Source: an uncultured Gemmatimonadales bacterium
GTDB lineage: Bacteria; Gemmatimonadota; Gemmatimonadetes; Gemmatimonadales; GWC2-71-9
Reading direction: 5' to 3'
Length of the DNA stretch: 64,000 nt
Assembly (NCBI GenBank): GCA_963779755.1
Contig: CAVZZO010000001.1
Coordinates: 672,001 to 736,000, forward strand
Positions 39,001 to 45,000 of the stretch are shown in pieces (the stretch's first letter is position 1; each line of letters opens with the position of its first letter). The position numbers were made by a program.

Positions 39001-42000
39001 ACGGCGCCCAGCATCCCCAGCAGCAGCACCGTCATCAGGCGGGCTTCGACGGATGTCGTGGCGTATAGCTCCGCCATCCCGGCCGACCCGAGCAGGGCCG
39101 ACAGCGGCCAGCCCACGGCCGCCTCGATCGCCCCGGTAGTGGCGCCGACCACGGCACCGGCCCACCAGCCCACCCGGTATCCCGCCAGCAGGCCGGCCGC
39201 GAAGTAGAGTACATAGGAACCGGGAGCCAGCAGGCTGTAGTTGAAGCCCAGAGCTCTTGCCCCCAGGGCGCCCAGCGCGTCGAAGACCAGGATGACGGCC
39301 GCGGCTTGCAGGATGGTGAAAAGCACGGATCGCATGGCATACCTCCGCGGTGAGACGGAGCGTGCGGGCGCCGGGCGGGCGGGGGGGAGGCGGCGCGTGC
39401 TGGCTCTCCAAGCTATGGTGCTGCGCCCCCGCCGCCAGATACCCGGCCGCTCTTCGACGGCCTCCGCCATGCCGGAGCGCCGTGAAACTACCTTCAGCAA
39501 ATATTCGTGAATCCTTCATGATCGGTTCCCTACGGTTCCTTCAAATTCCCTTCACAGGTCGGGGGTACCGATGAGCGCTATCCGCGTCAGGGCTTGCTCC
39601 GGAATTCTCACCGTCGCGCTGCTGCTGGGCCTGAGCGCGTGCACCGATGTGGTGTACCGCGACCGGCTGACCTATAACTCGCCGCCCGATACCTCCAGCG
39701 GCTTTCTGGGATACTTCACCGCGTCCACCAGGCAGACCACCTGCGGCAACTGCCACGTGGGCCAGCAGGCCGACTGGATCCAGACTAAGCACTCCAATGC
39801 CTGGGCCGATCTCCAGGCCAACCCCTCGGCGCAGCCCTTCTGCGAGAATTGTCACTCGGTGAACTCGCGCGGCAATCAGCCGCCCGCCATCGTCGGCTAC
39901 GAGAAGGTGAAGGACGAGGCCTACCACGACGTGCAATGCGAGAGCTGCCACGGGCCCGGATTCGAGCACGTGCAGAATCCCACCACCGTCGCCACCCGGC
40001 CGATCCCCAGTATTCAGGTCTATCCGAACGACGCCCCCGTGAGCGATACCGCGGCGGTGGTCAACAGCAGTTGCGGCGCCTGCCACCAGGGTGCCGGCCC
40101 GTCCCAGAATCACAATTACCTGAAGGAATGGCTCTCCTCGCGCCATGGACAGCTGAATACACACGCGGCACCCAACCCAAGCTGCCAGCCCTGCCACGAA
40201 GCCAAGGGCGCGCTGCTGGCCTTCGGCGTGAACACCGTGTACCAGCAGCTGGGCAGCAGCACCCTGATGCCGCAGAACTGCGTCGTCTGCCACGATCCGC
40301 ACGGGACCGCCAAGGACGCCAACGGGCAGCCGCTGCCGGGGCAGCTCCGCTTCGCCATCAACACGCCGGTGCTGGACCAGAACCTCTGCACCCGCTGCCA
40401 TAACCGGATTCCCCAGCCGTCGGCCGCCAACTTCCGCGGACCGCACGGGACCCAGGGGCCGGTGCTGTTCGGGTCGGCGGGCTACTTCCCGCCGGGAAGC
40501 TCCTACGACACCACGGAGATCCTGACCACCCACGGGTCCACGGCCAATCCCCGGCTGTGCGCCGGGTGCCATGTGAACGAGCTCAACGGGGTGGATGCCG
40601 GGGGCAATCCGACGTCGTTCACCGGCCACACCTTCCATCCGCTTCCCTGCCTGTCGCAGAAGAGCCCGCCGGTGGTGGACACCACCTACTCCAATACCTG
40701 TGCTTACGACGAGCCCAGCCGGTCCTGGGGCGCGTGCACGGCGTCGGGCTGCCACGGGACCGAGGCGGTCGCCGTCCAGCGGCTCACCAGTATCTGGGCC
40801 GAACGGGACGGGTACGTGGATGTGCTATGGAAGGACATGAACGGCAACCAGGCGGTGGATTCCTTCCCGACCGACAGCGGGTACCTGGCCCTGATCAAGC
40901 TGAATGCACCCAACGATCTCGACTTCACCAACGCGCCCTATAATACCATCCTCACACCGGCCAAGGGCGCCCTGTTTAACGCCCAGATGCTGGGCGAGGA
41001 TCTGACCGGCCATCCCGACGGCTCGCACGGGGTCCACAATCCGTTCCTCTACCGGGCCCTGCTGCAGGCGTCCATCGCCGATCTGGAGGCAAACTACAGC
41101 AGCTTCCTGCCGGCGCCGCCGGCCCCGGTCCTGAGCGAAATCCAGAACGCGCTGCGGAGCGGTGCTCTCAAGGTGGCGCCCGCCACGGCGCGGGTGATGA
41201 TGAGCCTGACGCCGGGAGGTCGGGTAGCCTCCCACTGAGGGGCATCGCCGTGCGTCACTGGATCGCGTTCGCTCTCCTGGCGGGCGCCGTCACTGCCGCG
41301 AAACCGCGGCCGGTGGCGGCGCCCCCCCGTTTCCATCGACGGCCATCGCGCCGCCCCAGGCGGCGCGCGACACCTTTCCGCATGCCCGGCACACCAGGTT
41401 CTCCTGCCTGACCTGCCACCTGAGCACGTCGCAGTCCATGCTCACCTTCAAACGGCCCGACGGGTGCCGGACCTGCCATCACGCCGACCCGGCCCGGGCG
41501 GAATGCTCCCACTGCCACCAGCCGGACAGCCTGCCGGCGACGATCGAGCGGCACCTTACCATCGCCGCGGCGGGCCGGCCGCCGCATGACCGGGTGGTAG
41601 CCTTCCCCCACGCGCGCCACACCCGCCTGGGCTGCACCACCTGCCACGGCGAGGCGGAGAGCCTGGCGCCGGTCGACTCCGCCGCCACCTGTCAGGGCTG
41701 CCACGACCAGCACCACCGGGCGGGACGGGCCTGCGCCACCTGTCATGCCAACCCATCCATTCTCTCGATCCACGCGCCGCCCGTGCGGGTCCACGTCGCC
41801 TGCGACGCGTGCCACGCCACCGTGGCCATCGCCGCCCTGACCCCGACCCGTTCGTTCTGTCTGGTCTGCCACCGGACCCAAGCGGATCACCAACCGGGCG
41901 GGGAGTGCACCGAGTGCCACTTCCAGGCCAGTCCGGAGGAGTATCGCGCCCGTCTGTTGCGGCGGAGGAAGACCGGATGAGAACGGGCCTCCGGCTGGCG

Positions 42001-45000
42001 CTCCTCGCGCTCCTCGCGACACCCGCGGCGGCTACGGCGCAACAGTATCTGCTCCGGCTCGACAGCCGCATGCAGCGGGTGGACTTCCGCGGCCTGGTGA
42101 AGGACAGCATCCCCGCCTCCCAGGTGGTGACCGGCGCCAACGGCCGCCCCGAAACCACTGATGGCTACGCCGTCACCTGCGGCGGCCAGTCCACCTGCAT
42201 CTTCTACCGCCCCGGGCCGGTGCTCCGGGGAGCGCCGATGGTGAACGGCGCCGACCTCACCGTCTGGGGCTTCGGCCTTCCCGGCCTGCGCCTGCGGGCC
42301 AACGGGCGGGTGGGCTTCGACCTGGGGAACAGCGAGGTCTGGCCCGGGACAAATCCGGCGCTGCAGGTGAACGAGGCCTATATCGAGTACGCTCCCGATC
42401 GCCTGGTCGCCCGCCTGGGCCGCCAGATCGAACACACGCGCCTCGGCTCCTACGGTTACGACGGCCCGCGCCTGGCCTGGGGGTTCCCCTCCCTGGGGCT
42501 CACCGTCATCGGCTATGGCGGGCTCGGGCTGGCGCGCGCGGTGGCCCTGCCGGTGACCAGCGACGCGCTCAATCCGCTGGATGAGTTTCAGCCCCGGCGG
42601 CGCCAGCTGCTCGCCGCCGGGGCCGTCGAATGGCAGCGCCCCATGGTGGACGCCCGGCTGGATTACGAGCGGGAGGTGGACCGGGAGACGCGCAACTTCG
42701 TCTCCGAACGGATGGCGCTCTCGGCCACCTTCCGTCCCTACGGGGGATGGAGCCTCTCCGGCGGCGCGGATTACGACCTGGCGTGGGGCTGGTGGGGCAG
42801 CGCCGACCTGACCGTCCGCTACGGCGGCACCCGCTACGGCGGGGCGGCGGGGGTGCGCCGCTATCGCCCCTATTTCGATCTCTGGACCCTGTGGGGCGCG
42901 TTCAGTCCGCTGCCCTATTCGGCCGTCAACGGGTCCGCCTGGGTGTCGCCCATGCAGGGCCTCACTCTGCATGCCTGGGGGGAGCGCTACTGGTACCCGG
43001 ACGCCGAGGCGGATACCCCGCTCCTCACGGTCGAGACCCGGGGTTGGCGCTGGAACGCCGGCGGCAGCTACGCCGTTTCGCCCAGCGTCAGCGTGGATGC
43101 CGGCTATCAGGCGGCGTACGGCCCTGGCGCGTCATCCCGCGGGGTGGACGGCAGTCTGGACTACCGGGTGAACCCCCGGCTCACGCTCACGGCGGAGGGC
43201 GGTTACCAGATCCGGCCGCTGGAGTACCGGCTGGAAGACCCGGCCCTGACCTGGTACGGGCTGGCGGTGAATTTCCGGCCTACCGAACGGCTGCGGCTGG
43301 ACCTGCGGGCCACCCGGTACCAGGAGAATCGCCGCCGCCCCGATGCCGGGGGAATTGACTGGTCGAATACCCGTTTCAGCCTGAGCTTCGCCTGGCTGCT
43401 GGGCTCGAGCATTGACCGCCTTCCCCTGCCGCCGGCGGTTCGCCGGGAGGGCCGGCGATGACCGTCACCCGTTTCTCCCTCATTGCTGGCCTCGGGCTCA
43501 TGCTCGCCGGCTTCGGCGGGCGGGCCGTCCGTCGGCAGCAGGACACGTTCGATCACGCCCGGCATCGCAAGGTGTTCCCGGAATGCGAGGGCTGCCATGC
43601 CGGCATCCGGCAGGCCGGACGCCCGGTATTCCCGGCGCCGGAGGTGTGCGCCAGATGTCATGATGGGACGGTGGAACGGAAGGTGGACTACACTCCACCG
43701 GAGCCGTCCATCCGGACCAACCTCCGCTTCCGTCACGCGGAGCACGACGCGCGGTCCGGCCGGCGGCTGCCGGGCGATTCCATTCTTGCCTGCAGCCAGT
43801 GCCACATCCCCCAGGGCGCGCCCTGGCTCACCGTCCGGCGCACTAATCCGCGCAACTGTCTCGACTGCCACGGAGTGACCGCGCCGCATCTTTCCGCTCC
43901 GGATACCGCCTGCGCCACCTGCCATCTCCCGCTGCCTCAGGCCGCGGCCTGGTCTCCGGAGCGGATTGCCCGACTGCCCCATCCGCCCTCACACGACCAG
44001 GCGAACTTCCCGAGCGCCGAGGGGCATGGCGCGCTGGCCCGGCAGAGTGAGCGGAACTGCGCCGTCTGCCACGCGCGCGATTTCTGTATCCGGTGCCATG
44101 TCAACGCGCCCGAGGTGAAGGCCATCCAGGCGCTGGCGCCCGATCCCCGCTCCCTGGCCATCAAGGTCGCGCTGGAGGCTCCCCAGTCGCACCGTGAAGC
44201 GGGCTGGCTGGACGAACATGGCGGGGTGGCGAAGCGCGAGGCGGCGAAGAGCTGCGCCTTCTGCCACACGCGGCAGAGCTGCATGGTCTGCCATCGGACC
44301 CGGCCGGCGCTGGCGCTGTCGCTGCCCGACAGCGGAGCGGGACGCGGGATCGGGGCGCGCATCCCGCGGAAGGCGGGGGGATACCACGGACCTGACTGGG
44401 TGGATCAGCATCCGGGGCCAGCCCGGTCGGCGCCCGAAACCTGCGAGACCTGCCACGCGCGGACGGAGTGCCTGGAGTGCCACCGTCCCAATCCCGGCGC
44501 GGCGGGGAACTATCACCCGGCGGGCTTCCTGACCCGGCATCCCGCGCTGGCCTTTAACCGGCAGGTGGACTGCACCGACTGCCACAGCCAGAGCCAGTTC
44601 TGCGTCACCTGCCACCAGGAGGCCGGCCTGGTGTCAACGGCTCCGCTGCGGCAGGGCTTCCATGACGCCAACGGCGCTTTTGCGCTCAACCACGGAGTGG
44701 CGGCACGGCAGAATCTCGAGTCCTGCGTCTCCTGTCATGCCGAGCGCGACTGCCTGACCTGCCATTCGGCGCAGGGCGGACGCCGCTTCAATCCCCACGG
44801 GCCGGGCTTCGACCCGGACCGCTTGCGGCAGCGCAATCCTCAGATGTGCGCCGGGTGTCACGGGAGAAATATTCCGACCAGGTGAGCGGTGAGCGGTGAG
44901 CGGTGAGCGGTGAGCGGTGCCGAAGGTAACACTGTCATTGCGAGCCGCGGAGCTGCGAAGCAATCCCCCTGGGCTGCGCCGGGAGCCCCTGCGCCTCGCA

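Follow-up and report, generated by a model that had tools for sequence, protein, structure and literature searches.

Porin-cytochrome (Pcc) conduits, as defined by Shi et al. (2014), combine an outer-membrane barrel with multihaem cytochromes, one of them a Sec-exported periplasmic partner and another an outer-membrane lipoprotein. In the excerpts of PMC4245776 used here, the porins of known Pcc clusters are predicted to have 18-22 membrane strands, and their periplasmic partners carry 5-14 haems, the largest holding 14 haems in 400 aa; MtoAB and PioAB are named there among the Mtr-type systems, and Gemmatimonadota are not among the phyla that its abstract names for Pcc clusters. On the surface of Thermincola potens, the nonahaem cytochrome OcwA serves as a terminal reductase (PDB 6i5b), and OcwA-type proteins reduce soluble substrates too, according to excerpts of PMC6703420. 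For inner-membrane electron entry, Table 1 of Shi et al. (2018, PMC6295460) lists two ImcH homologs and one CbcL-type homolog in Gemmatimonadetes.

We analyzed a 64,000-nucleotide stretch of DNA (hereafter, the window) from an uncultured Gemmatimonadales bacterium. It contains a tightly packed four-gene operon, A-B-C-D, made up of three multihaem cytochromes and one barrel (Table 1), with ATGA overlaps at both the B/C and C/D junctions and 12 nt between A and B. An earlier note on this DNA had described a three-part module; its cytochrome-barrel-cytochrome set was recovered, but the conserved unit comprises four genes, including the one at 39571-41238. The reading frames and motif counts given there were reproduced (180 aa and 8 CxxCH for 41438-41980, 16 CxxCH for D), as was the overlap of the 16-haem gene with the end of the barrel gene. 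Our literature search found no paper describing this Gemmatimonadota cassette. The best reading is that it represents a new family of porin-cytochrome conduit: the four genes probably encode a device that moves electrons across the outer membrane, with a complex and a topology that we infer.

Table 1. Coordinates of the cassette and of the neighboring genes in the window.
Feature	Position	Strand	Description or basis
A	39571..41238	+	555-aa lipoprotein multihaem cytochrome; 8 CxxCH + 1 CxxxxCH
B, short form	41250..41980	+	secreted 9-haem cytochrome, ~243 aa; frame broken at C7 run 41322-41328
C	41977..43461	+	494-aa outer-membrane beta-barrel, without curated family
D	43458..44885	+	475-aa secreted 16-haem cytochrome
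SPFH protein	46519-47505	-	neighbor module; Pfam, NCBIfam
DsrP-type NrfD membrane protein	47548-48837	-	neighbor module; Pfam, NCBIfam
DsrO-like 4Fe-4S protein	48845-49822	-	neighbor module; Pfam, NCBIfam
4-CxxCH cytochrome	49819-50529	-	neighbor module; Pfam, NCBIfam
5-CxxCH cytochrome	50526-51389	-	neighbor module; Pfam, NCBIfam
Tat-exported NapA-like molybdoenzyme	51341-53656	-	Pfam, NCBIfam; Tat motif

The barrel is central to this reading. A structure model of C, the test missing from the earlier note, was obtained with fair confidence (pLDDT 79.7, pTM 0.70) and predicts an all-beta outer-membrane barrel with no room for a plug. We counted 23 long strands in the DSSP secondary-structure string of the model, rather than in its coordinates, including one of 24 residues, which fits a total of about 24 strands for the plug-less barrel. 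The protein has a signal peptide, two invariant cysteines (68 and 74) and a conserved 18-residue C-terminal tail, and contains only 2 Cys and 2 His in all. A Foldseek search with the model returned 386 matches at E<=0.001; those listed, like the VIA-align matches listed, were all membrane beta-barrels, nearly all from bacterial outer membranes, and MtrB stood at rank 13. Among the matches listed, the longest alignments (335-374 residues) were to transporter and usher barrels, which we take to have 22 and 24 strands. VIA-align placed OpdQ on top (Z 17.6), with FimD at Z 15.7 and MtrB at Z 14.0. These fold matches are generic, with substrate channels, TonB-dependent transporter barrels and ushers scoring at least as high as MtrB.

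Profile searches placed C in none of the described conduit families. Of 42 members of the C family, 27 gave weak matches to the Pfam model OMP_b-brl (for the C of the window, Pfam gave matches below the cut-off only), and NCBIfam gave no match. For MtrB_PioB, neither Pfam nor NCBIfam gave a match to C at E<=0.01, and none of the 42 members matched at E<=0.1; similarly, the C profile found no PDB sequence at E<=10, although 6r2q_B was in the bank. By these searches, C is not a barrel of the MtrB_PioB family. The absence of CxxCH from the barrel protein rules out a Cyc2-type fused porin-cytochrome, and no Pfam or NCBIfam model of OmbB/OmaB/OmcB or of the Ext porins matched C. The resemblance to Geobacter Pcc clusters that had been proposed holds at the level of layout, and these profile searches revealed no sequence relationship to a named conduit family. 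The homolog search again yielded 1094 proteins, at E<=0.001 rather than the 1e-10 quoted previously, and the names listed were, as reported, "hypothetical protein" apart from one "opacity protein-like surface antigen". The nearest named Atlas clusters were also confirmed as OMP beta-barrel/porin (0.93).

To determine how widespread the cassette is, we surveyed 401 species genomes of Gemmatimonadota from 147 genera. C was found in 180 genomes and 79 genera, far more commonly than the two of 14 genomes counted earlier. D was present in 182 genomes, 178 of which also carried C (lists compared by eye), leaving four with D and without C. Wherever at least 1300 nt of room was available, D lay directly downstream of C (75/75 loci), with exactly 16 CxxCH motifs in 71 cases, and orthologs of both A and D were present at all 20 wider loci. 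The gene order is much tighter across the phylum than had been seen before. The best 80 public loci of the cassette all come from uncultured MAGs. Within D, the 16 CxxCH motifs and 14 further histidines are all invariant in 20 orthologs, which fits bis-His electron-transfer haems, and an N-terminal signal-like segment was seen in 8/8 orthologs read. The predicted model of D was unusable (pLDDT 51.7). D gave no match to TIGR03508 (MtrA/DmsE family) and, with 16 haems, is ruled out as a decahaem cytochrome of that family.

A supplies the lipoprotein component. Its Pfam domains are Cytochrome_C7, MtrC/MtrF II-IV and c554; its TIGR03508 score of 32.1 bits lies below the cut-off of 192.2. It aligned to OcwA (PDB 6i5b_A; E 2.8e-8) over short, patchy but colinear stretches of low identity that include a common C-terminal helical part, and appears from this alignment to be a distant relative of that surface reductase. 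OcwA is nonahaem, and A would match it in number if its CX4CH motif, which is retained in the single aligned ortholog, is counted with the 8 CxxCH. However, OcwA comes from the cell wall of a Gram-positive bacterium, whereas A is a predicted diderm lipoprotein encoded beside a barrel; a lipobox cysteine follows the hydrophobic N-terminus (signal peptide) in 12/12 orthologs, as read by eye.

The presence of this OcwA-related lipoprotein cytochrome completes the porin-cytochrome layout. Set against the Pcc definition, the cassette has a barrel with flanking multihaem cytochromes, which are kept at 20/20 wider loci and 75/75 loci; A is the predicted outer-membrane lipoprotein cytochrome, and D corresponds in kind to the Sec-exported periplasmic partner, though its 16 haems lie outside the published range. 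As in the Geobacter clusters (OmaB/OmbB/OmcB and relatives), to which further cytochromes of the inner membrane and periplasm are commonly joined, gene number is variable. The cassette differs from Pcc systems in a partner with 16 haems in 475 aa and in its usual feeder, an 18-haem protein predicted for the inner membrane, and may also differ in its barrel, modelled with ~23-24 strands. With Shewanella MtrCAB (PDB 6r2q) and with MtoAB/PioAB it has in common the pairing of a barrel with cytochromes and a lipoprotein cytochrome, here a putative surface one. In contrast to MtrCAB, the cytochrome gene follows the barrel gene and D has 16 rather than 10 haems; MtrB is also larger than C (649 residues in the solved chain).

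The feeder, B, occurs in two forms. The common form carries 18 haems and has two predicted membrane helices at its N-terminus, and two hydrophobic segments precede haem 1 in 7/7 long proteins read. Long B gave weak matches to NrfH, to the DmsE family (TIGR03508, 29.1 bits; cut-off 192.2) and to chain A of the Mtr complex 6r2q (E 0.0015). Like ImcH, CbcL and CymA, which oxidize quinol at the inner membrane during extracellular electron transfer, it places membrane helices before a haem module that is weakly NapC/NrfH-like. ImcH has 7 haems whereas long B has 18, and the likeness is one of layout and description. In an alignment with an 18-haem ortholog of 682 aa, the B of the window is 51% identical to residues 504-681, and it corresponds to the C-terminal 9-haem module of the protein found in most relatives. 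The earlier note had reported it as 8 CxxCH in 180 aa. That count is correct for the gene as called, but a three-frame read showed that the call, starting at ATG 41438, has no signal peptide, and the gene is a mis-called 9-haem secreted cytochrome. Upstream of this ATG, the same frame contains a ninth CxxCH that no start codon precedes, and the signal peptide, starting at GTG 41250, sits in another frame. The two frames join at the C7 run, and this break explains why gene callers begin B at the later ATG. With B out of frame, this copy of the cassette may be impaired.

Taken together, we suggest the following mechanism. Long B, held in the inner membrane by its two helices, would take electrons from quinol through its first, weakly NrfH/NapC-like module, span the periplasm and feed the chain. 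D, exported by Sec, dense in haem and translationally coupled to C, is likely threaded through or docked into the wide, plug-less barrel that C would form in the outer membrane, where A is likely the terminal reductase. In the clade of the window, B retains just the final 9 haems, preceded by a signal peptide, and an inner-membrane partner must therefore act in trans, candidates being the neighboring NrfD/FeS/cytochrome module or a second locus of the same genome, on contig C3. We infer that electrons most likely flow outward, in the respiration of acceptors that are poorly soluble or lie outside the cell, H2 being one of the donors. A bolder version, possible but doubtful in our judgment, is that A, B and D of the usual cassette, with 9, 18 and 16 haem motifs, together make a self-contained 43-motif wire from quinol to the surface, with B anchored in the inner membrane, D passing through the barrel and no need for soluble periplasmic shuttles. 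If so, a large share of soil Gemmatimonadota could respire minerals or humics in anoxic microsites on H2 from the adjacent uptake hydrogenase, and the feeder end would have been replaced repeatedly (long B, short B, cytochrome b set).

Although abundant in soils and sediments, Gemmatimonadota are represented by few cultures, and little is known of their anaerobic energy metabolism; those of soils are usually regarded as aerobic heterotrophs. The cassette looks like a previously undescribed wire for carrying respiratory electrons across the cell envelope, present in nearly half of the sampled species, and offers the phylum a specific, testable route for electron exchange with minerals, humics, electrodes or partner cells. 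Searches limited to the Mtr, Pcc or Cyc2 families probably miss it, because the barrel has no curated family and none of the cytochromes reaches a family cut-off. To extracellular electron transfer the cassette would contribute a barrel family whose haem partner is larger (16) than the published Pcc range, together with an unusual 18-haem feeder predicted for the inner membrane.

The C3 locus bears on a rather unlikely alternative, namely that the window holds a decaying duplicate, its B having lost the inner-membrane half and now being frameshifted, and that the working conduit is the C3 copy with its own cytochrome b partners. As reported earlier, that locus encodes 8-, 9-, 21-, 11- and 16-CxxCH proteins, a cytochrome b and a 510-aa paralog of C (51% identity over 473 aa, E 7e-161); the two 16-haem proteins are 54% identical over 479 aa. 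Its 11-haem cytochrome lies beside an FdnI-type cytochrome b, a layout resembling a split CbcL, and it further includes a b6-type cytochrome b besides the 9- and 21-haem cytochromes, a set of partners that, like the break in B, is consistent with decay in the window. However, five other genomes (L030, L052, L053, L060 and L077) carry short B in an unbroken form whose signal peptide is in frame, and short B forms a supported clade with the window (SH-aLRT 100), which indicates a subtype that is being maintained. The frames of A, C and D are open, full-length and complete in their motifs. With only four contigs, the assembly may be long-read, and a homopolymer miscall would then be as likely as a mutation.

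The genes flanking the cassette relate to the direction of flow. The module at 46519..53656 is convergent with the cassette and tied to it by recurrent adjacency alone: its genes also adjoin the cassette at L035, L041 and L043, in the last case directly after D on the same strand, and FeS-NrfD-SPFH genes do so at L032 and L033. Within 8 kb of the cassette in 19 relatives, we found [NiFe] hydrogenase subunits in seven, CcmF in seven and an NrfD-type module in five. Mtr-type conduits, MtoAB and PioAB among them, are known to run in both directions, and sequence alone fixes no polarity. It is conceivable, though unlikely, that the same architecture draws electrons from donors outside the cell (Fe(II), Mn(II), reduced humics or a partner cell) and hands them on to the quinone pool or to periplasmic reductases such as the neighboring NapA-like enzyme. 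The recurrent neighbors, comprising the NapA-like molybdoenzyme, two small cytochromes and the FeS/NrfD pair, agree with such a route, and the NapA-like enzyme could equally serve as the electron sink for inward flow. On the other hand, the hydrogenases near the cassette are of the uptake type, which points to a donor at hand and an acceptor needed, and A resembles the terminal reductase OcwA; we continue to favor outward flow.

We consider it quite improbable that C, instead of sheathing a cytochrome, is a solute channel serving periplasmic cytochromes, in which case A would reduce soluble substrates at the periplasmic side of the outer membrane, or a dedicated export or assembly pore for A, even though substrate channels, transporter barrels and ushers gave the best structural matches to C and most lipoproteins of diderms face the periplasm. 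OcwA-like proteins are also related to reductases of soluble acceptors (excerpts of PMC6703420), but a barrel of the modelled width, if left open, would leave a hole much larger than expected of a solute channel, and the strict one-to-one pairing of C with its 16-haem partner, by overlapping stop and start codons and at every locus with room, with C absent from no more than four of the 182 genomes that carry D, is expected of a stoichiometric complex such as that of MtrA and MtrB. The reading of C, together with its C3 paralog, as the porin of a Gemmatimonadota-type electron conduit, which the earlier note had proposed, is supported by the barrel model, the conserved gene order and the OcwA-related lipoprotein cytochrome. 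Elsewhere in the genome, the V/A-type ATPase operon placed near the second locus was not found inside C3:768001-788000, and the large subunit of the [NiFe] hydrogenase was located at C3:757846-759396. A genome-wide census again counted 14 open reading frames with 4-23 CxxCH motifs, and the genome carries cytochrome c maturation genes.

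The cassette consists of four open reading frames on the plus strand of the window, spanning 39571-44885 within G+C-rich surroundings and encoding three multihaem cytochromes (A, B and D) and a predicted outer-membrane barrel (C). B overlaps C, and C overlaps D, by an ATGA in each case. Re-reading the frames reproduced the haem-motif counts of an earlier note on this DNA, as well as its genome-wide census of 14 frames with 4-23 motifs. A second, paralogous cassette lies on contig C3 of the same genome. It includes an 8-haem paralog of A, a b6-type cytochrome b, cytochromes with 9, 21 and 11 haems, an FdnI-type cytochrome b, a 510-aa paralog of C (51% identity over 473 aa) and a 16-haem paralog of D (54% identity over 479 aa).

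Positions of the cassette genes and of neighboring features in the window.
Feature	Position	Strand	Description
Ser/Thr protein kinase	33230-36178	+	982 aa; a few genes upstream of the cassette
A	39571-41238	+	555 aa; 8 CxxCH and one CxxxxCH
B as called	41438-41980	+	180 aa; 8 CxxCH
C	41977-43461	+	494 aa from an ATG overlapping the B stop; two Cys in all and no haem motif
D	43458-44885	+	475 aa; 16 CxxCH
Short tandem repeat	44881-44919		7-base unit, 5.6 copies, right at the D stop codon
Long tandem repeat	45195-46460		270-bp unit, 4.7 copies, 96% identity, lying between D and the SPFH gene
Convergent gene set	46519-53656	-	NapA-like molybdoenzyme, two cytochromes, FeS, NrfD, SPFH

Examining the region upstream of B revealed that its coding sequence begins earlier than called. 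A ninth CxxCH precedes the ATG of B in the same open frame, which offers no start codon for it, and a typical signal peptide can be read from a GTG at 41250, 12 nt past the stop of A, in a different frame from the body of B. The switch between the two frames falls on a C7 homopolymer (41322-41328). In an 18-haem ortholog of 682 aa, B aligns with residues 504-681 at 51% identity. Five other genomes encode an unbroken short form that has nine CxxCH and a signal peptide in the same frame (loci L030, L052, L053, L060 and L077). Together, the frame reading, the ortholog match and the five intact short forms indicate that the true B is a secreted 9-haem cytochrome of ~243 aa, with a one-base frame change here. 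This change, which leads gene callers to start B at 41438 and to lose one haem and the export signal, is either a mutation or a homopolymer miscall. Thus, for B (g00604) the earlier note counted eight CxxCH correctly but relied on a wrong gene model that left out the signal peptide and the ninth motif. The position of the indel could not be placed from the DNA alignment with the nearest relative, as the frameshift region is too diverged; public sequencing runs yielded one soil metagenome with 8% of the sampled words, which is not the source sample, and no RNA run. In two other assemblies (L020 of genome G371 and L023 of genome G387), the coding sequence of the 16-haem cytochrome is spread across two or three frames, so the window is not alone in having a frame break in this cassette.

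The earlier note had proposed C as the porin of an extracellular electron conduit, with a barrel fold that it could not test. An alignment of 42 C homologs yielded an AlphaFold2 model (mean pLDDT 79.7, pTM 0.70) that is all-beta, with 23 long strands in its DSSP string, one of them 24 residues long. Long loops alternate with short turns in the model, as expected for a barrel of ~24 strands with both ends periplasmic, and beyond the signal peptide and a conserved 18-residue tail, no sequence is left for a plug. Searching the PDB with Foldseek returned 386 matches at E<=0.001; among the matches listed, all are membrane barrels, including the FimD usher, chitoporin, Occ channels and TonB-dependent transporters, with MtrB at rank 13. 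Similarly, VIA-align over 48,161 chains gave Z-scores up to 17.6. Its longest alignments (335-374 residues) are to transporter and usher barrels, of 22 and 24 strands, and MtrB reached a Z-score of 14.0 over 339 residues. Overall, the model and its matches support a barrel fold for C; the matches are generic and pick out no single family.

At the sequence level, C belongs to no curated family. The Pfam family OMP_b-brl scored 17.6 bits, short of its cut-off of 28.7, and was touched by 27 of the 42 members at E<=0.1, a threshold at which MtrB_PioB was touched by none of them. NCBIfam gave no match for C, and a PDB sequence search with the C profile gave none at E<=10. The nearest Atlas clusters are unnamed and mostly from Gemmatimonadota.

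There is good support for the cassette as a genetic unit that is conserved across the phylum. A word-indexed search found 1094 relatives of C at E<=0.001; the family comprises 452 cluster representatives at 50% identity and, in contigs from one genome per species, 421 loci. The 80 highest-ranking loci among these 421 all come from metagenome-assembled genomes (MAGs), and 78 of the 80 bear a label beginning with Gemmatimonad. Within the phylum, C was detected in 180 of 401 sampled genomes, in 79 of 147 genera and in 116 of 165 genomes of the window's own family, and D in 182 of the 401. Comparing the two lists by eye, C and D occur together in 178 genomes, C alone in two and D alone in four, figures that we treat as descriptive and without a test because the relatives are not independent. 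The two C-only genomes each give an incomplete match to C, which would be compatible with truncation at the end of a contig. Among 80 oriented loci, 75 extend 1300 nt or more beyond C. In every one of these 75, a homolog of D follows on the strand of C, the spacing of the two profile envelopes ranging from a 45-nt overlap to a 99-nt gap; D has exactly 16 CxxCH in 71 of them. Orthologs of A and D are present in all 20 loci examined more widely (19 plus the C3 locus), and the 9-haem module of B in 14 of these 20.

The gene directly before C is more variable. Across the 63 loci with enough upstream DNA, it is a long B, an 18-haem-type protein, in 50, a short B of the window's type in six and a cytochrome b, as at the C3 locus, in seven. 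We mapped these types onto a tree of 96 C proteins, built by a quick method and midpoint-rooted for drawing only. Four short-B loci, the window among them, form a supported clade whose sister group consists of long-B loci; the remaining short-B and cytochrome b loci are scattered, with 21 label changes, which indicates that the feeder end was remodelled several times while C and D stayed fixed. The window's nearest relative carries both a short-B locus (L052) and a cytochrome b locus (L102) in one MAG. The two of the 80 loci with other labels, Acidimicrobiaceae (L112) and Vicinamibacterales (L125), sit on contigs of 6 and 15 kb and nest among Gemmatimonadota in the tree; these labels are likely binning errors, and gene transfer was set aside given such short contigs in such a position.

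In 12 of 12 orthologs of A, a Cys follows the hydrophobic N-terminus, forming a lipobox. The only solved sequence relative of A is 6i5b (E 2.8e-8, over several short colinear stretches), which is OcwA of Thermincola potens, a terminal reductase that is described as located at the cell surface and as related to enzymes reducing soluble acceptors (PMC6703420). D has a signal-peptide-like N-terminus in all eight orthologs read. All 16 CxxCH and 14 further His are invariant among 20 orthologs of D, a pattern that fits bis-His electron-transfer haems at a predicted density of about one per 28 residues. Modeling D with AlphaFold2 on an alignment of 20 rows gave a structure too poor for a fold search (pLDDT 51.7, pTM 0.37), and the best PDB sequence match, at E 0.033, was not useful. 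Long B proteins have ~680 aa and 17-19 CxxCH, with two hydrophobic segments ahead of the first haem in seven of seven read. They show weak matches to the NrfH and DmsE families and, in the Mtr complex (PDB entry 6r2q), to chain A (E 0.0015), which we take to be MtrA, although the molecule name printed with the entry differs.

We compared the cassette with described conduits. Its layout agrees with the definition of a pcc cluster in PMC4245776, namely a porin-like protein clustered with periplasmic and outer-membrane multihaem cytochromes. However, with a modeled barrel of ~24 strands and a 16-haem partner, it falls outside the ranges given there (18-22 strands and 5-14 haems, the largest partner having 400 aa and 14 haems). 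The cassette is not a member of the Mtr/Mto/Pio group, as neither defining family, the MtrB_PioB barrel or the MtrA/DmsE cytochrome, was found when both were tested, nor is it a Cyc2-type fusion. The DFE cluster of Desulfovibrio ferrophilus was rejected as a match, since the accessible text describes NHL beta-propeller proteins in it and no evident porin (PMC9769857). A full-text literature search found no description of the cassette. In the accessible portions of PMC11316326 and PMC8805035, the only systems reported for Gemmatimonadota are a small number of MtrCAB operons, Cyc2 and homologs of DFE_0461-0465. A 2026 karst paper reports porin-cytochrome clusters in 36 MAGs, in a text that does not specify whether Gemmatimonadota are represented; these clusters could already include this cassette (PMC13264449).

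The NapA-like molybdoenzyme of the convergent set is Tat-exported and scores 625.6 bits, under the NapA cut-off of 904. It is accompanied by two small cytochromes (5 and 4 CxxCH), a DsrO-like FeS protein, an NrfD protein above the DsrP cut-off and an SPFH protein, a subunit set unusual for a Nap-type enzyme. Rfam gave no match in the repeat region between this set and the cassette (44800-46600). The whole set also adjoins the cassette in L035, L041 and L043, in the last directly after D and on the same strand, and its FeS-NrfD-SPFH part does so in L032 and L033. In seven of 19 relatives (L033, L036, L038, L045, L046, L049 and L050), genes for the small and large subunits of a [NiFe] hydrogenase are found no more than 8 kb from the cassette, and CcmF is found that close in seven of the 19 as well; the C3 locus of the source genome is preceded, 10-20 kb upstream, by a [NiFe] hydrogenase and a CcmF-type gene. 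Given these neighbors, the cassette sits among respiratory genes.

The best-supported reading is that the cassette encodes a porin-cytochrome conduit, a function that is hypothetical. C would form the sheath, and D, judged by strict adjacency, translational coupling and haem density, the chain running through it; A would be the outer-membrane terminal cytochrome and B the feeder, anchored in its usual form in the inner membrane. With such an anchored B, the cassette alone could link quinol to the cell surface via 43 haem motifs. In the window's short-B subtype, the inner-membrane partner would have to come in trans. Electrons may flow inward, to the NapA-like enzyme encoded beside the cassette in the window and in three other loci; outward flow is favored by the likeness of A to OcwA and by the hydrogenase neighbors.

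Two very large cytochromes, one with 23 CxxCH and one with 19, are encoded as a pair outside the window, elsewhere on the same contig of the source genome (C1, 249634-253532). A homologous pair lies ~3 kb downstream of the cassette in two relatives, at L034 (14738-18003) and L035 (12990-17227).
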